Below, in pieces: positions 1 to 6,709 of a stretch of DNA of 6,709 nt. The first letter of the stretch is position 1. Every line of letters begins with the position of its first letter. Location of the stretch: positions 1 through 6,709 of the IMG/VR virus record IMGVR_UViG_2802429221_000016, one strand, 5' to 3'. The notes beneath the pieces are model-generated. The model searched no databases and was not told where the DNA came from. It was given only the letters and a program-made list of their open reading frames with translations. Made by a program: the position numbers and the translations under genes. This DNA is from a virus (taxonomy: Duplodnaviria; Heunggongvirae; Uroviricota; Caudoviricetes).

Positions 1-996
1 TTAACCCACTAGCCAGATCAACATCACAATGATGACGACGAATAATATCCACAGGCTGGGGCGCATTGACATTTCTTTCATCGTGTCAATTAATGGGGTA
101 AATGGATTGAGCAGCGGTTGAATATCACGCGGTTCAATGCCTTTCACCCGCCGCTGATAGAGCTGGTTAAGGATATCTTCGGCCTGTGCAGACGTCAGGG
201 CTGATTGTGTTGAAAGCCCATACTTTTGCTCAACATACGTCGATAATACCGTCAACTCGCTTGCATCCAGTGGCTGCTTTAGCGCCATCTGGAGTGACTC
301 CAGCGTCGGAGTGTGTTGCTGACTTAACGCCTGACGGGCCTGTAACCAGGTGACCAGATGGTTAAACAGTTTCGCCGGAATCAACTCGCCATCTTTCACC
401 CCTGAAAGTTCCAGCATCGATTGCCAAATCTGTTTGCTGGGTTCCCCTGTTGCCGCCGCGAGTTTGGTGACCAGTTGCTTGAGCGTATTGTGTTCCGCTG
501 GTAATAAAGGTCGGTCGGTCGCCTGGCGCTGTTGCGGCTGCGGGATAACCATCTTCCCTTCCTGTAGTAGCGTCAGGACGGTTTTTAATTGCTCTGGTGA
601 GAGTTGATTTAGCGGCGTCTGACCAAAGTTATGCCGGATATAATCCGTGACGGCCTGACGATTATTCCCCAGACGTAAATACTCCCCCAATTGGGCCAAA
701 AGTTGGCGGACAGAATAACTTTTTTGCGCAGACAGCAAACGTTGCGCAAGGTTTTGTTCTGCTGCCGGGAAATGGCGTGAAAGCAAAGGTGAATCACCCG
801 GCAGACCGATGTCGTGCTTTATATTGGCCCACAACTCTGCGCTCTGCTGTTGCGTCAGCGAAGTCACTTTGATCATCAAACTTTCCAACGCGGTACGTTG
901 CAAGCTGGATAAAGGCTGATTGCCTGCGCCAGACGACAGGTTATCCCCCTGACCTGGTGGTTGCGCAGGAGGAGGGCCTGAAAGAGGTTGTATCAT
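1..996 (-). CDS. flk: Flk-like tail-anchored inner-membrane protein (flagellar regulator Flk), complete
   Basis: 331-aa ORF. ATG at 996..994 with AAGGA Shine-Dalgarno 7 nt upstream (plus coords 1004-1008, read on minus strand). Pro/Gln-rich N-terminus MIQPLSGPPPAQPPGQGDNL and a single hydrophobic anchor SLWILFVVIIVMLIWLVG directly before the stop. Length, C-terminal anchor and position next to pdxB match enterobacterial Flk as I remember it; not verified by search. Confidence 0.7.
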   Translation of the reverse strand: MIQPLSGPPPAQPPGQGDNLSSGAGNQPLSSLQRTALESLMIKVTSLTQQQSAELWANIKHDIGLPGDSPLLSRHFPAAEQNLAQRLLSAQKSYSVRQLLAQLGEYLRLGNNRQAVTDYIRHNFGQTPLNQLSPEQLKTVLTLLQEGKMVIPQPQQRQATDRPLLPAEHNTLKQLVTKLAAATGEPSKQIWQSMLELSGVKDGELIPAKLFNHLVTWLQARQALSQQHTPTLESLQMALKQPLDASELTVLSTYVEQKYGLSTQSALTSAQAEDILNQLYQRRVKGIEPRDIQPLLNPFTPLIDTMKEMSMRPSLWILFVVIIVMLIWLVG

Positions 997-1095
997 TACG
1001 TATCCTTATACCTGAAATCATCGCAAGTATGCCTGGCCGCGAGATTATGGCACACTTGTCCGGTTAACTCTCGTTCTCATACAGGTAGCACAAAC

Positions 1096-1140
1096 GTGAA
1101 AATCCTTGTTGATGAAAAAGATGATCGGTTAATTTATTGA
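1096..1140 (+). pseudogene. pdxB: 5' remnant of pdxB (erythronate-4-phosphate dehydrogenase): native start plus 7 codons, then foreign sequence and a stop
   Basis: GTG at 1096 preceded by AGGT (1083-1086) reads M-K-I-L-V-D-E, identical to the PdxB N-terminus as I recall it (MKILVDENMPYA...). It then reads K-D-D-R-L-I-Y-stop (TGA 1138-1140) instead of N-M-P-Y-A. It is divergent from flk, as pdxB is in E. coli/Salmonella. The match is only 7 residues, so this rests on context and needs alignment to a reference. Confidence 0.4.
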
Positions 1141-1160
1141 TATAAAAGGATTTATATCAA
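1137..1160. repeat. Perfect 10-bp inverted repeat TTGATATAAA-agga-TTTATATCAA just inside the junction
   Basis: Read directly: 1137-1146 is the reverse complement of 1151-1160, with a 4-bp spacer. It overlaps the stop of the pdxB remnant. Candidate recombinase/regulator binding site or element-terminal structure; function not established. Confidence 0.5.
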
Positions 1161-1199
1161 CGTATGTCCACGCAGTGACCACATTTTCGAGATATAGTT

Positions 1200-1230
1200 A
1201 AAGCCCGTAAAATATGCGGGCTTTATAATT
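1200..1230 (+). terminator. Intrinsic-terminator-like hairpin followed by a U-rich tract
   Basis: AAAGCCCG (1200-1207) pairs with CGGGCTTT (1217-1224) around a 9-nt loop, followed by TATAATTCTTGCTTT. It would stop read-through from the native pdxB promoter into the element. The stem is flanked by A and T runs, so it could also act weakly on the minus strand. Confidence 0.4.
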
Positions 1231-1231
1231 C

Positions 1232-1261
1232 TTGCTTTGCCCTCTTTTCAAACCATAAAAT
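1232..1261 (+). promoter_or_regulatory. Candidate sigma70 promoter for the moron gene
   Basis: TTGCTT (1232-1237), 18-bp spacer, TAAAAT (1256-1261); predicted start about 1268, roughly 49 nt upstream of the ATG. Hexamer match only, AT-rich background, so weak. Confidence 0.3.
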
Positions 1262-1316
1262 TTGTGTGCCTTTTTGGGGTGGTTAGTTTTATCTTTGATA
1301 TTATGGAGAATTATTC

Positions 1317-2057
1317 ATGCTTCATTGGGTTTGTACAAAATGTCAGTCTAAAAATTCTACGAAGGAATCAGTGTGTCCTGCGTGTGGAACTTCTTTTTGG
1401 TCGACGCAGAAAAAAGAAAGGAGAGGGTGTTTATTGTTGGTTGTAATGTTCTTCGTTGTGTTTTGGGTTATTGGGCAATTATCCGGAAACGAATCCGATT
1501 CACAGGTAAATAATATTCCATCGAAAGATCATATTAGCGATGAACTTGCTTTATCTGGAGTAGACAAGGCGAAACCGTATTCTTTTGTGCGTTATGATGA
1601 CATAAGTTATGCGGGACGAAAGAGATTTAAGGTTTTTATAGTGTCGCCTGAGTCTCAAGATTTAGAATCAAGAGCTTCGACAGCAATGGCCGCGGCTATT
1701 GAGTGGCAGAAAGAGAAGAGAGCTGACTTTGTATCTGTGTTGCTTCTACCTACAGAAAATTCTGAAGGTAGTTATCGGTTGGCAATGGTTGATTATTCTC
1801 CGGATGGTTGCGGAACTGGTGCTGTATGTGATAATAAAAAATGGACTATATTGTCTAGTGACGTAATATTAACGAAATCGCAACTTCAATCTATATCCTT
1901 GTGGAATGAGTATAAGAAAAAGTTTGCGGGTAATGATGGAATTTTGGATTTAAAGGAAGAAAAGAAATTGAAGCAGTTTATTAGTAAACAGCTAAATATT
2001 CCTGTTAAGGATGTATTTGCTCCAGATATTTTTCCTTTAAAGAAAATCGAAGATTAA
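1317..2057 (+). CDS. Moron-like membrane protein: N-terminal Cys4 zinc ribbon, one TM helix, about 190-aa C-terminal domain; function unknown
   Basis: 246-aa ORF with GGAG (1305-1308) 8 nt before the ATG. CxxC-x10-CxxC (C6, C9, C20, C23), basic stretch QKKERRG, hydrophobic segment CLLLVVMFFVVFWVIGQL (about residues 38-55), then a hydrophilic domain containing a CGTGAVC cysteine pair. Positive-inside rule suggests N-in/C-out. Visibly AT-rich relative to flanks (by eye, not computed). Followed by a terminator. I do not recognise the C-terminal domain. Confidence 0.8.
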   Translation: MLHWVCTKCQSKNSTKESVCPACGTSFWSTQKKERRGCLLLVVMFFVVFWVIGQLSGNESDSQVNNIPSKDHISDELALSGVDKAKPYSFVRYDDISYAGRKRFKVFIVSPESQDLESRASTAMAAAIEWQKEKRADFVSVLLLPTENSEGSYRLAMVDYSPDGCGTGAVCDNKKWTILSSDVILTKSQLQSISLWNEYKKKFAGNDGILDLKEEKKLKQFISKQLNIPVKDVFAPDIFPLKKIED

Positions 2058-2128
2058 CAAAATAAATAGACGAGACTGAATTAGTATTATTGTAATCTTT
2101 AACTGGTACCCTCACTTGTGAGGGCACC

Positions 2129-2172
2129 AAAAAGAAAACCCGCAGTTTTTACGCTGCGGGTTTCTGCTTTGG
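2129..2172. terminator. Bidirectional intrinsic terminator between the convergent moron and hok transcripts
   Basis: Hairpin CCCGCAG (2139-2145) / CTGCGGG (2154-2160) with an 8-nt loop. Plus strand: followed by TTTCTGCTTT (2161-2170). Minus strand: followed by UUUUCUUUUU (complement of 2129-2138). A second imperfect hairpin (2105-2128, CCCTCA...TGAGGG) sits immediately next to it. Confidence 0.6.
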
Positions 2173-2216
2173 GATGTGTATAGGGTGCCTTATCGACCTT
2201 ACCCTGGCAACCGATT

Positions 2217-2251
2217 GACGGGGAAGTTGCCTTCCCCGTCGCGGTTTTCTT
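2217..2251. other. Perfect 10-bp palindromic hairpin abutting the hok stop codon
   Basis: GACGGGGAAG (2217-2226), loop TTGC, CTTCCCCGTC (2231-2240), then GCGG + TTTTCTT on the plus strand. It could be a second plus-strand terminator, or, read on the minus strand, a structured element in the hok 3' UTR. Confidence 0.4.
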
Positions 2252-2393
2252 ACTGTCTACACTGTAAGAACGCCGCAAACTCCGCTCCCCAGAAGCTCAT
2301 CCGTATCTCGCAGAGCGAACCCTGCAACATCCAGATGATGAGGATTGCCGTCACGCACAGTGTGGTGATGGCGATTAGCGATTTTTGCGACAT
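2250..2393 (-). CDS. hok: Hok/Gef-family type I toxin (small membrane-depolarising peptide), 47 aa
   Basis: Not in the ORF track (below its length cut-off). Minus-strand ATG at 2393..2391 with AGGAG 8 nt upstream; stop TAA at 2252..2250. Translation: MSQKSLIAITTLCVTAILIIWMLQGSLCEIRMSFWGAEFAAFLQCRQ. It shares the family layout (N-terminal TM helix, then W-M-x-x-x-S-L-C-E-I/L, then E-x-A-A-F-L-x-C) with E. coli HokA (...FTWMIRDSLCELHIKQESYELAAFLACKLKE) and R1 Hok (...[25 protein letters not shown]), both quoted from memory. Confidence 0.8.
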   Translation of the reverse strand: MSQKSLIAITTLCVTAILIIWMLQGSLCEIRMSFWGAEFAAFLQCRQ

Positions 2394-2496
2394 AGCGCTT
2401 GCTCCTTTTTCGGGGAGGCGCTAACCTACGACTTGCGAAGGTTGTATGGCTAGGGCCTCGGGTTAACGTTAAAGTTGACTCGGGGCCTTTCCACAT
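2257..2496 (-). CDS. mok: mok-like overlapping reading frame (modulator of hok translation)
   Basis: 79-codon ORF in a different frame that begins upstream of hok and overlaps nearly all of it, ending 7 nt from the hok stop. ATG at 2496 with GAAGG upstream. The protein is low-complexity and basic, as expected for a frame that exists for translational coupling rather than for its product. The true start could be internal. Confidence 0.4.
   Translation of the reverse strand: MWKGPESTLTLTRGPSHTTFASRRLAPPRKRSKRYVAKIANRHHHTVRDGNPHHLDVAGFALRDTDELLGSGVCGVLTV
2454..2487 (+). other. Strand-specific RNA hairpin (14 bp with three G-U pairs) antisense to the mok 5' region
   Basis: GGCCTCGGGTTAAC (2454-2467) pairs with GTTGACTCGGGGCC (2474-2487) around loop GTTAAA. 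All three non-Watson-Crick positions are G-U/U-G on the plus-strand RNA and would be C-A mismatches on the minus-strand RNA. Candidate part of a Sok-like antisense RNA; only TTT follows, so it is not a convincing terminator on its own. Confidence 0.3.
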
Positions 2497-2546
2497 TCGG
2501 CCTTCGGGTTTACCCTCCAGCCATCAGCCGAAAGGCACCCGCGCGA

Positions 2547-2576
2547 ATTCTAGCCTGGTTTTTTCCCTTGTTTCAA
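2547..2576 (-). promoter_or_regulatory. Candidate sigma70 promoter for the hok/mok mRNA
   Basis: On the minus strand: TTGAAA (plus coords 2576..2571), 18-bp spacer, TAGAAT (2552..2547); predicted start about 2540, giving a transcript of about 410 nt to the terminator at about 2130. Hexamer match only. Confidence 0.3.
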
Positions 2577-2580
2577 TCCG

Positions 2581-2610
2581 TTGAGACTTATCAGCCTTCT
2601 GATGTAAAAT
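2581..2610 (+). promoter_or_regulatory. Near-consensus sigma70 promoter of the candidate sRNA
   Basis: TTGAGA (2581-2586), 18-bp spacer, TAAAAT (2605-2610). It is back-to-back with the candidate hok promoter; the two -35 elements are 4 bp apart. Confidence 0.45.
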
Positions 2611-2616
2611 TCCCGA

Positions 2617-2681
2617 CCGCAGACATTATTCAGTCACGCATTTGATACATGCTTCCGCCGGCGTTCGCGCCGGTTTTTTTT
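2617..2681 (+). ncRNA. Candidate small RNA, about 65 nt, from promoter to intrinsic terminator
   Basis: Predicted start about 2616-2619, 7-9 nt after the -10. The 3' end is a hairpin CCGGCG (2658-2663), loop TTCG, CGCCGG (2668-2673) followed by eight T (2674-2681). No plausible ORF inside (the only ATG frame runs through the terminator). Sok-like antitoxin RNAs are about this size, but this unit overlaps the hok mRNA only if that mRNA starts to the right of 2681; identity unresolved. Confidence 0.4.
2656..2681 (+). terminator. Textbook Rho-independent terminator (GC stem, UUCG tetraloop, U8)
   Basis: Read directly: perfect 6-bp GC stem, extendable by one G-U pair, UUCG loop, eight consecutive T. 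Plus-strand specific (no U-run on the other side). Confidence 0.7.
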
Positions 2682-2915
2682 CGTCCTGTTGCTGCATAGA
2701 TCGTCATGCGCGATCGAGGCGCGGTATTGATCCTTTTTCAGTTTAATTTTGACTCTCAATTTTACGCATGCCGCGCCGCGTCTGGCTTCGTTGTTTGACG
2801 ATTTTTTGATGCGATCCTTTCGTGATCGTTTCCCGTCTCGCGTAAAATGCAAAAACTCTTTTAATATCATGCGGTTTTATTGCCCCTGCCATTTATGCGA
2901 TCGTAAAAACCACTC

Positions 2916-3020
2916 TGAAAACTGAAAAAAATTTCAAAGCGTGAAATTTCAGATCTTCGCTTTTCCCTCAGTTGCTGCGCGGGCTGGCGGTCATTTTTGC
3001 ACGGCAGAAAACTGAAAAAC
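2916..3020. repeat. A-tract repeat cluster: two copies of GAAAACTGAAAAA plus TGAAA/TTTCA palindromes
   Basis: GAAAACTGAAAAA at 2917-2929 and again at 3007-3019 (13/13). TGAAA-aaaa-TTTCA at 2923-2936 and the perfect 10-bp palindrome TGAAATTTCA at 2942-2951. Non-coding; candidate regulator or nucleoid-protein binding sites. Confidence 0.5.
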
Positions 3021-3033
3021 TGTTTCGACACAA

Positions 3034-3100
3034 AACCCGCGGGTTGGAGGGGGTAGCGCGGTTTACGTCACCTCACGCTTTACGTCACACCGTTTACGTG
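3034..3100. repeat. 12-bp perfect palindrome followed by three direct repeats of TTTACGT(C/G)
   Basis: AACCCGCGGGTT (3034-3045) is self-complementary. TTTACGTCA at 3062-3070 and 3079-3087, and TTTACGTG at 3093-3100, spaced 17 and 14 bp. Lies just downstream of the terminator-like hairpin that follows the 565-aa gene. Candidate operator / iteron / arm-type protein-binding array. Confidence 0.5.
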
Positions 3101-3149
3101 GTGTGCGCATACAGCGCCGGAATGGCACGCAGAACGCATTAATCATGTG

Positions 3150-3184
3150 GCAGATATGAAAACGCACGACCGGAGCCGTGCGTT
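3150..3184 (-). terminator. Candidate intrinsic terminator of the minus-strand structural operon
   Basis: AACGCACG (3161-3168) pairs with CGTGCGTT (3177-3184) around an 8-nt loop, about 40 nt after the stop at 3222-3224. On the minus-strand RNA it is followed by UUUUCAUAUCU. Confidence 0.4.
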
Positions 3185-3221
3185 GCGTGATGGGCGTTTA
3201 TGGGGGTTTTATGCCCGGTGA

Positions 3222-4919
3222 TCAGGCGATAAGGTCACCGTATTTTTCGCGCAGGCTCGTAGCCTGTTTGGCGTCTGCGGCAAGTTCGCTGCTGTTTGTT
3301 GGTGCGCCGGTGTTGCTGTGGGTGTGGTTTGCAGTGTGTGTGGCCAGCAACTGAACCAGATCCAGAATATCAATCAACAACGTCAGCAGATTAAGTCCGG
3401 ATTTTTCCCGTGAGCCACCGCGACCAATAAATACTGTCGGGGCTGTAAACTCCAGACCGCCGTCCGCCCGGCATGTTCTGCGGCCTCCCACGTTTTCAGT
3501 AAGGTCGCGCTCAATCGTGGATGTCGCCCCTTTGAGTTTAGTCAGCAAATCCTGCGCTACCATCTGGATATGCTCACCGGCTGCGATCGCATAATGACCA
3601 GTAGTAATGTGTTCTGTCTGGCCTGTCATCAGCTTGCTGGTTCCCAGAACGCTGGTTATGTCGTTTGCCTGTACTGTTGTTGTTCTGGTTGTTGTTGTGC
3701 GTTCTTCCTGATCGCTGTTAATGGTTCGCCTGGCTGAATGCTCCCTGATTTGCTGATCGGTTTCTCTGTGCCAGCTTCCGTCAGTCGTGACGCGCTGAAA
3801 CACTTCTGCGCGCTGTTGCTGCAGCTGTTCGCCGGGCTTTACATCAGGCAGGTTATGGCCAGCGGGTAAGATTTGCCTGATGACAGGTTTATCCGGTCGT
3901 CCTTCAATGTTGGATATTTCCACGATGGTGCCAGCCGGCGGGTAGGCAAAACATCCCGCCTCACTGCCAGCCATGGGGACGGGGAGCGGTACTGCCGGGT
4001 AAACGGGCGTATCGCTTTTATCGTTGCCGTTCTCATCAAGCAACTGCACATCGACGGCGTAGCGTGGGCGGAAACTGTCGGCCACATCGCCCAGGGTGGC
4101 GGGCTCCGTTGGTGCAATGACGCGCGCCAGCCGGGTATGTAGCGTACCGCTGGCCAGTTCCGGGAACTGTGTTTCCATTTGTCTGCGTAATGGTGATTTG
4201 GAAACAGGGCTGCCCGTGGCGGTAAGGCGCTCCCATGTCAGGGTCATTTTCTCGTTGTTGAGGGCTACACGGGTAATGCGCCCGGCCGGAAGGTTCACGC
4301 CCGGTCGCACAGTTTCCATAAACATGATGTCGATGCTGTTTCCGCCGCTTTGCCCGAGTGTGTACTGTTGCGGAATATCCGGCATTGTAATACTGGCAAA
4401 TCGTGAATCAGCTGCGCTTCCCACAAATACAGAACCGTCCGGCATTGGATGCCAGACGTAATCGCTGATACTGAATGCTCGCCCCAGTTGGCTGAGCAGT
4501 TGTGCTCCGCTGCCGCTGTGGGTGATGTAGGGAGTTGGTATGCTGACGTAATCCGCATCTGGCGTGGTGAAAACGATGCCGCTTTGTTTGCCCAGATTAT
4601 CGAGTACCCCCCGCAACGTCGGGTGTTGCATGGAGCAAGGGAAATCAAAATCCAGCACAGCAGCTGCTTCACGGATAAAAAGGCGACGTGAGCCATTTTC
4701 AGCAGGTTGATCGCGCTCAATGTAGCCGGAGAAATAGCGCCATGCTTCACCGTCACGGCCGAGATCAATTTGTACCATTGCGCCGGCAAGGCTGTGTTCG
4801 GGTGACAGATTGTTAACAGAAATGAAGCCACGACCGGCAGCATTCAGGGTAAGAACAAGGTTTATATCGGCAATTTCCACCCGTTCGCCATTAATCATGC
4901 AGCGTTGTATCAATTTCAT
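3222..4919 (-). CDS. Phage baseplate hub/central spike protein (fused gp27-like N-terminal region + gp5/gpV-like OB-fold and needle), 565 aa
   Basis: Strong SD GAGGAAGGG upstream; start overlaps the upstream stop (ATGA at 4916-4919). The segment PPAGTIVEISNIEGRPDKPVIRQIL fits the OB-fold signature of phage gp5/gpV and T6SS VgrG (typical VgrG form P-R-I-G-Q-E-V-V-V-D-F-L-E-G-D-P-D-Q-P-I-I, from memory). It is followed by Thr-rich beta-strand-like repeats (TTTTRTTTV, HITTGHYAIAAGEHI) and a His-rich apex THTANHTHSNTG resembling the metal-binding tip of P2 gpV-type spikes. The N-terminal 320 aa is unassigned and the hub call is inference. Confidence 0.55.
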   Translation of the reverse strand: MKLIQRCMINGERVEIADINLVLTLNAAGRGFISVNNLSPEHSLAGAMVQIDLGRDGEAWRYFSGYIERDQPAENGSRRLFIREAAAVLDFDFPCSMQHPTLRGVLDNLGKQSGIVFTTPDADYVSIPTPYITHSGSGAQLLSQLGRAFSISDYVWHPMPDGSVFVGSAADSRFASITMPDIPQQYTLGQSGGNSIDIMFMETVRPGVNLPAGRITRVALNNEKMTLTWERLTATGSPVSKSPLRRQMETQFPELASGTLHTRLARVIAPTEPATLGDVADSFRPRYAVDVQLLDENGNDKSDTPVYPAVPLPVPMAGSEAGCFAYPPAGTIVEISNIEGRPDKPVIRQILPAGHNLPDVKPGEQLQQQRAEVFQRVTTDGSWHRETDQQIREHSARRTINSDQEERTTTTRTTTVQANDITSVLGTSKLMTGQTEHITTGHYAIAAGEHIQMVAQDLLTKLKGATSTIERDLTENVGGRRTCRADGGLEFTAPTVFIGRGGSREKSGLNLLTLLIDILDLVQLLATHTANHTHSNTGAPTNSSELAADAKQATSLREKYGDLIA

Positions 4920-5491
4920 GTTTTCCCTTCCTCTTTCACACTCCCAATGCCAACAGCATCCAGACCAGAGCCAACGGCATCATTGATTTTTTTCCAGAAC
5001 GAACTTTGCGTATTCATGCCTTTGTCTGGTGCCTGTTCGCTGCCATTCTGGGTCTGCTGTCTGGCGATGGTTTTTTGTGAACCGCTACGTGCTGATGCTT
5101 TCTCTGGCACGCTTAATTTTTCCCTGAGAGTAAAGGTGACCTGCCAGTGCATTTTTCCCTGTTGTTCCGTGGCATCAATGCCACCAGAAAATACCCCCTG
5201 TCGCATATTGATTGCCTTCGCGGTAGCGTTAGCAATGCGATATGTTTTTTTAGCACCGTTGCTTTCTGTTGCCTCCGCAAGCTGAAAAATACGGGTCAGA
5301 ATAGCTTCATCGTTAAAATCAATAACCCCCGACACGCGCAGCTCTTTAGCCTTGTTTCCCTGCTGGGCGCTCGTGGTGCTGGTTGACTGTCCGGACATAT
5401 CTTTGTCCGGTAGTTGCATGGTGGCGCTGACGGTGATGTTGCGCAGCAGAATGGCTTCCCCGTCAAGCGCAAGGACAATCATCTGGGTCAT
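4916..5491 (-). CDS. Phage structural-operon protein, 191 aa, function unknown (possibly tail/baseplate-associated)
   Basis: Long ORF in the same operon; its stop overlaps the next start in ATGA, and its start region overlaps the upstream ORF by 29 nt. No motif I can assign; the tail/baseplate guess is from position only. Confidence 0.6.
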   Translation of the reverse strand: MTQMIVLALDGEAILLRNITVSATMQLPDKDMSGQSTSTTSAQQGNKAKELRVSGVIDFNDEAILTRIFQLAEATESNGAKKTYRIANATAKAINMRQGVFSGGIDATEQQGKMHWQVTFTLREKLSVPEKASARSGSQKTIARQQTQNGSEQAPDKGMNTQSSFWKKINDAVGSGLDAVGIGSVKEEGKT

Positions 5492-6176
5492 GTAGTGCTT
5501 CCCTTAGTGATGAGAGATTATCGCCGACGAACAGCATCACAGCTGTAAAAACCCACTCGGGGTGTGGGATGTTTTTTTGTATCAGCACTGCAGCCTGGCT
5601 AAGAGCTCCCTTGTAGCAAAAGCGCCACACCGGGCAAAATTTTTGCCGGAGTGCGGCCTGCTGATCAGCGATTTCCTGTAAGGCTTTATCTCTCGCATTC
5701 ATGAACTGATGCAGCGATGATGACAATGTTTCCGGTGATGTGGCGGCAGGAGTGGCTGCCTGTGCAATGGTTGCCGCCAGCGACATGCTTCGAGTGGTCT
5801 GTGTCGACAGCATTATCGGTTCCGGAAGTGATGTTGCCGGTCTGGCGGGGATTTGCATTCTGCTGATGGCCAGTGAAAGCTGGCTGGAGATCATGCGGGA
5901 CATTCGTCCCACCTCCGGCAACGGAAATGCGCCTGAAAATTGCCTGGCGAGTGATAAAAACTCGCCAGCAGAAGGGGTGCAAAATAACAGCGCCACAATG
6001 TCTTTTTCTGTGCTTTCTTTCAGATAGGGTAAAAGTGCAGATACAGCATTTTCGGGGCTGAGATAACGCCCCGATGGTTTGATGTTTCCGGTATTTTCTG
6101 ACCATGGATGAAGGCAAACCACAGAGCATTTAATGTGCATGGCTGACGGACGCAGAATTGCCTTTTCCCATTTCAT
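5463..6176 (-). CDS. Phage structural-operon protein, 237 aa, function unknown
   Basis: Long ORF; its start overlaps the upstream stop (ATGA at 6173-6176). Ala/Thr/Ser-rich central linker. No recognisable motif. Confidence 0.6.
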   Translation of the reverse strand: MKWEKAILRPSAMHIKCSVVCLHPWSENTGNIKPSGRYLSPENAVSALLPYLKESTEKDIVALLFCTPSAGEFLSLARQFSGAFPLPEVGRMSRMISSQLSLAISRMQIPARPATSLPEPIMLSTQTTRSMSLAATIAQAATPAATSPETLSSSLHQFMNARDKALQEIADQQAALRQKFCPVWRFCYKGALSQAAVLIQKNIPHPEWVFTAVMLFVGDNLSSLREALHDPDDCPCA

Positions 6177-6709
6177 TCTGACTCTCCAGTCTGAAAAGCG
6201 CGGATGTCGGCAAGATTATTCAGGCCATCCAGCACGTCCTTCATCTGTCGCTGACGTCGATAAATTTCATCATTGCGGTTAACCTGCGCCTGCGCCATAG
6301 CTGTAGCCAGCTCCTCAAGCTCTGGCATCGACATCTTCACTTGCTGATTATCGGCATCACCCCATGTCATAACGTCCCGCGCTGTGTCGGATTTTGATGC
6401 CATTACCACCGGATAGATACGGGCCAGTGAGCTGGGGCCAGCATTCCAGCTACGACCGTTCCATTCGAACGTGAACGGCTGCGCCTCCTGTTCTGTGCGC
6501 CACACCTCGATTTCCCGCTTTTTGGCATCCTTCGCCGCGGTGATAAGTTCCGGCGTGACGGTGAACGGGGTTATTTCTCCCCATTTGCCGCTCTGTAACT
6601 CTTCCCAGATGCGCTGGCCTGTCGGGACGCTATCGTCCTGCATGGCGGTATACGGGACGAATTCCGTTTCACCTTCAAATAACACCTCGCAGTCAACCGC
6701 ACCATTTTC
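6173..6709 (-). CDS. Phage structural-operon protein, 5' end outside the window (at least 178 codons visible)
   Basis: The frame stays open from 6709 down to the stop at 6173-6175. The track's start at 6685 is a GTG with no convincing SD, so the gene probably begins upstream of the window. Acidic, coiled C-terminal part. Not assignable. Confidence 0.55.
   Translation of the reverse strand, partial: ENGAVDCEVLFEGETEFVPYTAMQDDSVPTGQRIWEELQSGKWGEITPFTVTPELITAAKDAKKREIEVWRTEQEAQPFTFEWNGRSWNAGPSSLARIYPVVMASKSDTARDVMTWGDADNQQVKMSMPELEELATAMAQAQVNRNDEIYRRQRQMKDVLDGLNNLADIRAFQTGESE

Follow-up and report, generated by a model that had tools for sequence, protein, structure and literature searches.

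A mobile cargo gene of a pdxB-integrated prophage encodes a membrane-anchored, predicted periplasmic DUF4875 protein with a possible role in superinfection exclusion

Introduction

At the edge of a prophage lying in the 5' end of the host gene pdxB sits a single AT-rich gene that closely related prophages do without: what does it encode, and does it serve the phage or the lysogen? The gene (positions 1317 to 2057, + strand) is part of a 6,709-nucleotide stretch of viral DNA (Caudoviricetes; IMG/VR record IMGVR_UViG_2802429221_000016, positions 1 to 6,709), which we call the window throughout. An earlier reading of its letters (the original prediction) had proposed a moron-type gene for a zinc-ribbon membrane protein and a candidate role in envelope-level defence. 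Here we show by computation that the product is a bitopic inner-membrane protein, in which a cytoplasmic Cys4 ribbon is joined through one transmembrane (TM) helix and an acidic linker to a periplasmic DUF4875 domain of ~155 amino acids, and we are confident that this is a real prophage cargo gene encoding an anchored periplasmic protein of that family. The DUF4875 family, its structure and the annotation of the gene are already known; added here are the family-wide pattern of export signals, a co-varying pair of cysteines, residence in accessory slots of temperate phages and the mobility of the cassette that carries the gene. The reading best supported by the data is that of a periplasmic binding protein, anchored in the inner membrane and of benefit to the lysogen.

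The gene product is a membrane-anchored DUF4875 protein

As predicted, positions 1317-2057 hold an ATG-initiated open reading frame (ORF) for 246 amino acids, far longer than shuffled sequence allows: the stop-free run at the ORF spans 252 codons, compared with 73 on average and 135 at most when the surrounding cassette was shuffled 500 times, and at the composition of the cassette, where a stop is expected every ~13 codons, the probability of meeting none across 246 codons is ~3e-9. That the ORF is a real gene is also indicated by the ratio of non-synonymous to synonymous substitution (dN/dS) of 0.07-0.26 in its folded domain and by the 319 clusters of relatives described below. Its parts are as follows.

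1317..2057, + strand: coding sequence, 246 amino acids, ATG start, Zn-ribbon / TM / DUF4875 protein (from ORF length, Pfam and dN/dS)
1332..1385, + strand: cytoplasmic Cys4 zinc ribbon, C6-x2-C9-x10-C20-x2-C23 (Zn_Ribbon_1, E=4.6e-4; two beta-hairpin strands with a predicted local distance difference test score, pLDDT, of 82-87)
1425..1481, + strand: single TM helix, residues ~37-55, after the basic patch KKERR (K32, K33, R35, R36) (model helix 35-55; charge asymmetry)
1482..1565, + strand: acidic linker of low model confidence, residues 56-83 (pLDDT 55-70; isoelectric point 4.1; dN/dS ~0.5 for residues 1-83)
1566..2027, + strand: DUF4875 domain, residues 84-237, strand and helix order bb-a-bbb-aa (Pfam, AlphaFold2 model and alignment)
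1809..1829, + strand: loop with Cys165 and Cys171, a putative periplasmic disulfide (Cys co-variation)

Each element of the predicted architecture was found, from the Cys4 ribbon (CxxC-x10-CxxC) and the basic patch to the one TM helix and the large C-terminal domain with its pair of cysteines. An AlphaFold2 model built from 77 relatives (pLDDT 88.8; predicted template-modelling score 0.70) consists of a two-hairpin ribbon, the TM helix at residues 35-55, the linker and the bb-a-bbb-aa domain, with the folded domain spanning residues 84-240. Residues 1-36 carry seven Lys/Arg and two Asp/Glu, the linker one Lys/Arg and six Asp/Glu, and by the positive-inside rule this charge asymmetry across the TM helix orients the N terminus towards the cytoplasm and the C terminus outwards. 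The evidence for a location in the envelope is in silico and comprises the TM helix, the charge asymmetry, export signals found across the family and a co-varying pair of cysteines; the last two, which are taken up below, support the originally proposed topology of a cytoplasmic ribbon and a periplasmic domain.

The C-terminal domain, which the original prediction had not recognised, proved to be a catalogued one. Residues 84-237 match PF16175 (DUF4875) with E=7.4e-35 and 120.4 bits, against a cut-off of 25, along model positions 2-155 of 156, and the predicted structure has the same fold as the DUF4875 crystal structure 4lg3 (DESPIG_00776 of Desulfovibrio piger, from structural genomics, deposited as 'Uncharacterized protein'). 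Membership of DUF4875 is established by hidden Markov model score, fold and motif. RefSeq already names a 98% identical protein of Escherichia coli 'DUF4875 domain-containing protein', PHROG 28655 (annotated as of unknown function) matches the protein with E=4e-24, and an identical protein is encoded on an IMG/VR viral contig. Housekeeping homology of the C-terminal domain, named beforehand as a finding that would speak against a defence role, did not turn up.

The periplasmic domain is the conserved core of the family

An exhaustive HMMER search returned 319 clusters of relatives (50% identity) at E<=1e-3; anchors were surveyed in the best 150 relatives, and conserved residues and cysteines in an alignment of 77 members. 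Ahead of the DUF4875 domain, every one of the best 150 has a means of export or anchoring, be it a cleavable signal peptide, a lipobox, between one and three TM helices or a Zn ribbon with a TM helix, so that the common denominator of the family is an extracytoplasmic domain. Compared with the family at large and with 4lg3, the window copy uses the Zn-ribbon (C-x2-C-x10-C-x2-C) plus TM anchor, found in ~20 of the 150, and belongs to the subgroup with the pair of cysteines. Both cysteines are present in 19 of the 77 aligned members, neither in 57 and one alone in a single member; such near-perfect co-variation is the signature of a structural disulfide and therefore of an oxidising compartment, and the periplasmic domain is probably stabilised by a Cys165-Cys171 bond.

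The window protein has all the near-invariant residues of the alignment (Y88, R101, R103, T122, A126, A127, A156, Y160, D163, G168 and W176), and a P-D-G-x-G-x-G loop is among the conserved features of the family. This near-invariant set holds no His/Ser/Cys catalytic set, and the longer relatives carry fusions to Sel1 repeats and a bacterial PH domain only, from which we infer binding rather than catalysis. A periplasmic enzyme or small-ligand binder, for example a DHHA2-like phosphoester module acting on nucleotides, polyphosphate or cell-wall precursors, would have to be argued from matches that are partial and non-significant, cover under half of the domain and reach template-modelling scores of ~0.2. 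The protein lacks a DHH catalytic domain as well as any conserved His/Asp metal-binding set, and fusions to enzyme domains do not occur in the family; we give this idea hardly any credence.

As the domain is under purifying selection and its anchors are interchangeable, the periplasmic domain is the functional core. The ribbon itself resembles the Zn_Ribbon_1 / DZR and PHROG 14275 modules in its C-x2-C-x10-C-x2-C spacing, basic residues and TM helix, although its match to Zn_Ribbon_1 (20.3 bits) stays under the Pfam gathering score of 25. It is the part on which an abortive-infection mechanism would have to be built, in which the cytoplasmic ribbon senses a phage component and the TM helix disrupts the membrane. 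Single-TM effectors are common in defence systems (PMC9122126), a Zn ribbon in the cytoplasm could serve to bind a protein or nucleic acid, and a ribbon-TM module of the same kind heads another protein carried in the cargo slot described below (L002_ZnR). However, conservation and selection act on the periplasmic domain, the ribbon and linker evolve faster (dN/dS ~0.5), and, because most relatives have no cytoplasmic portion but a signal peptide or lipobox only, we regard a sensor/effector of this kind as most improbable.

One further protein retrieved by the search (P0006, 3179 amino acids) matched the query only via 38 repeated zinc-ribbon-like stretches and is probably an unrelated repeat protein rather than a DUF4875 member.

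The gene lies in a variable cargo slot and its cassette is mobile

To the left of the prophage the window holds the host gene flk (1..996, - strand; NCBIfam equivalog, 487 bits). Homology of prophage-free E. coli, including K-12, to the window stops at position 1118, inside the first codons of pdxB, and the K-12 locus (L004) matches at 905-1118 only; everything to the right of 1118 is prophage, inserted in the 5' part of pdxB. Siblings of this prophage that occupy the same flk/pdxB site (L002, L003 and L023 among them) share sequence with the window up to positions 1201-1224 and again from 2104-2182, and differ from it in between, which delimits the following features.

1095..1118, + strand: 5' remnant of pdxB (ATGAAAATCCTTGTTGATGAAAA...) and host/prophage junction (prophage-free E. 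coli match no further than 1118)
1119..1201, no strand: conserved prophage end, common to siblings irrespective of cargo (L002 matches to 1201, L003 and L023 to 1224; G+C content, GC, 0.313)
1202..2104, + strand: variable cargo cassette of ~0.9 kb carrying the DUF4875 gene (GC 0.362; siblings resume at 2104-2182; low synonymous divergence, dS)
L002 4264-5493, L003 4226-5698 and L023 2314-3256: alternative-cargo slots (sibling comparison)

L002 and L003 encode baseplate proteins 97-99% identical to that of the window and lack the DUF4875 gene. In one sibling with such a near-identical baseplate protein the cargo (GC 0.36) comprises a 110-amino-acid zinc-ribbon membrane protein (L002_ZnR), headed by a ribbon-TM module with the C-x2-C-x10-C-x2-C spacing of the window protein, and two 'CYDK'-motif proteins annotated as TagO / type VI secretion protein. 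In another it consists of a com/mom-type methyltransferase (DNA-modification) pair and a hypothetical gene, further siblings carry a TM2-domain protein, and one DUF4875 allele of 57% identity adjoins a com/mom pair in the same slot. The locus also documents an attachment-site cargo slot in a pdxB-integrating prophage lineage that is home to other uncharacterised envelope genes.

Composition sets the insert apart as well, in keeping with the lower GC that had been judged by eye: the ORF (0.372) and the cassette (0.362) lie well below the host flank (0.504), the hok region (0.532) and the tail genes (0.531). By the definition given in PMC3594210, after Juhala et al. 2000, a moron is extra DNA that close relatives lack at the same position, differs in GC from its surroundings, has a promoter and a terminator of its own and is expressed from the repressed prophage. 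The first two features hold here, while the candidate promoter and terminator are taken up below; with the junction at 1118, the absence of the gene from siblings with 97-99% identical baseplate proteins and the foreign composition, the proposal of a moron-type cargo gene in a prophage stands.

The cassette also has a history of its own. A prophage whose baseplate protein is only 68% identical has a DUF4875 domain 93% identical to that of the window, and between these two prophages dS is 0.27 for the cassette, whereas flk reaches 0.79, the HP1_ORF34 gene 2.37 and the baseplate gene saturation. With a dS far under that of its neighbours, the cassette therefore moves horizontally between diverged phages.

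A separate comparison, with E. coli STEC308 (L001), gave a dS of 0.74 for flk (window 1-996; 87% protein identity), 0.07-0.11 for prophage genes and 0.013 for the cassette; flk is thus diverged and the prophage genes near-identical, so the same prophage is found in clearly diverged host backgrounds. The host of the window is not a typical E. coli; most E. coli match at 80-90%.

Relatives occupy accessory positions in temperate phages

We looked up the genomic contexts of 11 further family members, of which nine were informative, the contigs of P0142 and P0020 being too short to judge. In all nine the gene lies in an accessory position of a temperate phage. Computation shows the proteins of the DUF4875 family as a whole to be exported or anchored in the membrane, and their genes to reside in accessory slots of such phages. 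The end slot of the present prophage lineage holds alleles of 85%, 45% and 33% identity at three chromosomal sites, namely flk/pdxB, beside DUF1131/eut and beside DUF1480/rsmF. Elsewhere, the gene lies between repressor and integrase in Aeromonas phage LPM4 and in another P2-like prophage, and in a third case downstream of an S24 repressor; in these three phages it is on the same strand as the repressor, downstream of it and one or two genes away, and such positions imply expression during lysogeny. In a P2-like prophage a lipoprotein form and a SocA_Panacea gene lie two genes apart, the Vibrio phages MAR and VP585 carry the gene after the tail module, and in a temperate T7-like prophage it is an opposite-strand insert. 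Close relatives of the subclade of the window were absent from GTDB species-representative genomes (scans with the single protein and with the close alignment), and tblastn found no relative on plasmids.

A signal-peptide form (P0011) sits between gpA and the portal gene gpQ, the interval defined as the defence hotspot of P2-like phages (PMC9122126). The slot of the window resembles this hotspot in that its cargo likewise turns over rapidly between near-identical phages, but it lies elsewhere, flanked by the attachment site and hok at the tail end of a lineage related to HP1/P2 by gene families only.

These contexts also bear on whether the protein serves the cycle of the phage itself, by modulating lysis or release or, like Llp of T5, by inactivating receptors or entry sites on lysing cells and so sparing progeny from being wasted. 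The tail/baseplate module is indeed the immediate neighbour of the gene, both in this lineage and in Vibrio phage MAR, and a periplasmic location would suit action on envelope components. Against such a role, the gene is dispensable, siblings with 97-99% identical baseplate proteins being without it; it is convergent to the late genes rather than co-oriented with them; and the repressor-downstream positions in three other phages point to lysogenic expression. Because near-identical siblings lack the gene, we consider a part in the phage's own cycle improbable.

The T7-like case deserves a note of its own: that prophage (L026/L027, 5648-9271; serine recombinase, T7-type RNA polymerase, DNA polymerase A and primase-helicase) adjoins prc/proQ, and its DUF4875 lipoprotein gene has an ORF with an RPOL_N hit on one side and the main RNA_pol ORF on the other, such that the polymerase gene looks split around the insert.

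A possible role in superinfection exclusion

On the model that we favour, the protein would be made in the lysogen, where its periplasmic domain would act by binding and not by catalysis, the zinc-ribbon/TM part serving as an interchangeable anchor rather than as the functional core. Its likeliest role would be superinfection exclusion, the delivery of the genome of an incoming phage being blocked after adsorption, and its targets might be a tail-tip or ejected phage protein or, alternatively, a host periplasmic or inner-membrane factor for DNA entry. Anti-phage exclusion at genome entry is suggested by topology and context, and we hold it tentatively, as having somewhat less than an even chance. 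With a little more reserve still, we suggest that DUF4875 as a whole may be a widespread periplasmic superinfection-exclusion or envelope-defence family of temperate phages, in which a surface made up of R101, R103, Y160, D163, the Gly loop and W176 would bind either the tail-tip or ejection protein of an incoming phage or a host factor for entry, the anchors would be interchangeable, and a one-gene cassette would travel between accessory slots of unrelated temperate phages, the P2 defence hotspot included.

The nearest functional analogy is gp15 of HK97, the product of the original 'moron', an inner-membrane protein made from the prophage that keeps incoming genomes out while leaving the outer-membrane receptor unmasked (PMC3594210). 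Akin to gp15, the window gene is an insert of foreign composition beside tail genes and encodes an inner-membrane protein; the two differ in that no relation in sequence or fold connects them, gp15 being small, YebO-like and encoded inside the tail operon, and in that the role considered here is a predicted one. A second parallel is offered by SieA of P22, an inner-membrane protein that blocks DNA passage, and by Imm and Sp of T4, all of them phage proteins anchored in the membrane, whose action in the envelope follows adsorption (PMC11436027). To these, however, no homology was detected, and Imm and Sp come from a lytic phage. SieA, moreover, is polytopic. The resemblance to gp15 and SieA is one of functional analogy only. 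As for Ltp of Streptococcus phage TP-J34, a superinfection-exclusion lipoprotein of solved structure (PDB 4eqq), only 45 residues align, which gives no evidence of relatedness.

A benefit to the lysogen need not be aimed at phages. In lysogenic conversion of the kind known from Bor and Lom of lambda, the periplasmic domain would protect or alter the envelope, for instance by conferring immunity to colicins or type VI secretion system (T6SS) effectors, by raising stress tolerance or in host interaction. A weak similarity to BtpiA and the TagO/T6SS annotation of sibling cargo hint in this direction, but an effector gene is never adjacent; when the protein was tested as a BtpiA-like T6SS immunity protein, neither significant fold or sequence similarity nor an adjacent cognate effector was found, and a search of the literature on BtpiA or on superinfection exclusion with a zinc ribbon yielded nothing relevant. 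We regard conversion of this type as the main rival, with a chance a little below that of exclusion.

Several observations weigh against exclusion at genome entry. Tested for membership of known defence or exclusion families, the protein belonged to none: PADLOC-DB v2.0.0 returned 0 defence families at E<=0.1, no NCBIfam model matched, and DUF4875 is absent from the supplementary tables of Rousset et al. 2022 (PMC9122126) that were examined. The literature searched held no mention of DUF4875, PF16175 or 4LG3. Fold neighbours are uninformative, and the BFVD viral fold library gave nothing at E<=0.001. Diversifying selection was not seen (dN/dS <=0.26 in the domain), and at the level of the whole domain the protein bears no signature of an arms race. 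Expression in the lysogen is predicted from the positions of homologues, and a consensus scan identified no promoter for this copy. Finally, the sample of contexts is small (nine informative of 11, plus phage database records), and guilt by association is weak, since com/mom, which shares the slot, is not host defence.

Should the function be confirmed, a DUF of solved structure would gain the standing of a new single-gene family, acting at the envelope against phages or in lysogenic conversion, a level at which exclusion is far less catalogued than cytoplasmic defence; should no phenotype emerge, this would be an ordinary annotated DUF gene in a prophage. A crystal structure, a set of invariant residues and natural anchor variants make experiments on the mechanism feasible at once.

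Expression signals around the gene

The signals on either side of the ORF are these.

1199..1225, + strand: terminator-like hairpin (AAAGCCCG-loop-CGGGCTTT) at the left cassette edge, with an 11-pair stem (kept in L003, L023 and cassette alleles)
1224..1229, + strand: perfect TATAAT, the sole candidate -10, with no recognisable -35 (region kept among close alleles)
1305..1308, + strand: Shine-Dalgarno GGAG, 8 nucleotides 5' of the ATG (retained in alleles at 85-98% identity; GGAGG in the 57% allele)
2135..2164, - strand: strong hairpin between the convergent genes, terminator-like on the - strand only (for the hok transcript), its + strand tail partly T-rich

The gene had been described as a self-contained unit, with a candidate promoter, a GGAG ribosome-binding site and a bidirectional terminator. 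The ribosome-binding site is in place. As regards the promoter, the perfect TATAAT at 1224-1229 is a possible candidate for the DUF4875 gene, but it has no -35 partner, and a sigma-70 consensus scan found no + strand promoter upstream of the ORF. The terminator was not confirmed as bidirectional, and the hairpin at 2135-2164 is common to sibling prophages that lack the DUF4875 gene (H10-H15 match the window from 2110/2118, L023 from 2104) and so is an element of the prophage backbone, not of the cassette. These data give weak support to a unit with its own promoter and a bidirectional terminator.

The native promoter and start codon of pdxB now lead into a 14-codon remnant ORF (MKILVDEKDDRLIY*) that is directed into the prophage, towards the DUF4875 gene. 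Read-through from this host promoter could provide lysogen-specific expression of the gene. The conserved terminator-like hairpin at 1199-1225 sits between the remnant ORF and the DUF4875 gene, and may shield the prophage from read-through of the orphaned pdxB promoter.

The remainder of the prophage

To the right of the cassette lies backbone, given here for context only.

2250..2393, - strand: Hok/Gef-family toxin ORF (PF01848)

This ORF is part of a hok/mok/sok-type locus (window 2130-2600, - strand) that is similar, at 83-88% identity, to the 'MokW-like host killing' regions of Xuanwuvirus P88-type and Stx phages; no Rfam family matched the locus at gathering score, and neither Rfam at gathering thresholds nor ARAGORN found RNA genes in the window. 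A two-gene system formed by the DUF4875 gene and the adjacent hok was considered and rejected, hok being conserved backbone whatever the cargo.

Next to the ~620 bp that follow lies the gene for a 565-amino-acid baseplate/spike-like protein (window 3222-4919, - strand), which matches PHROG 2258 'baseplate protein' (E=5e-233) and has faint similarity only to Phage_base_V, the gp5 C-terminal domain and VgrG. RefSeq records label it hypothetical or, in what appears to be a single case, 'type VI secretion system Vgr family protein', and in this phage lineage it probably serves as tail spike or hub. The other prophage proteins in the window are an HP1_ORF34 baseplate protein, a 237-amino-acid protein without assignment and a DUF4376 tail-fibre-type protein. 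Further along the element, as seen in related genomes, come tail-fibre genes, Baseplate_J, Tail_P2_I, ParM and a replication endonuclease of P2 gpA type, and the gene families of the prophage (tail, Baseplate_J, Tail_P2_I and gpA-type endonuclease) are therefore of P2/HP1 type. The whole arrangement occurs in only 8 of 5,426 complete E. coli genomes, at ~91-94% identity.

The interval between the hok locus and the baseplate gene (window 2601-3221) is without a convincing ORF and is kept in sibling prophages. It holds a strong terminator-like hairpin at 2657-2674, followed by T8, and two facing promoter-like sites lie near its hok-proximal end, at 2547-2610.

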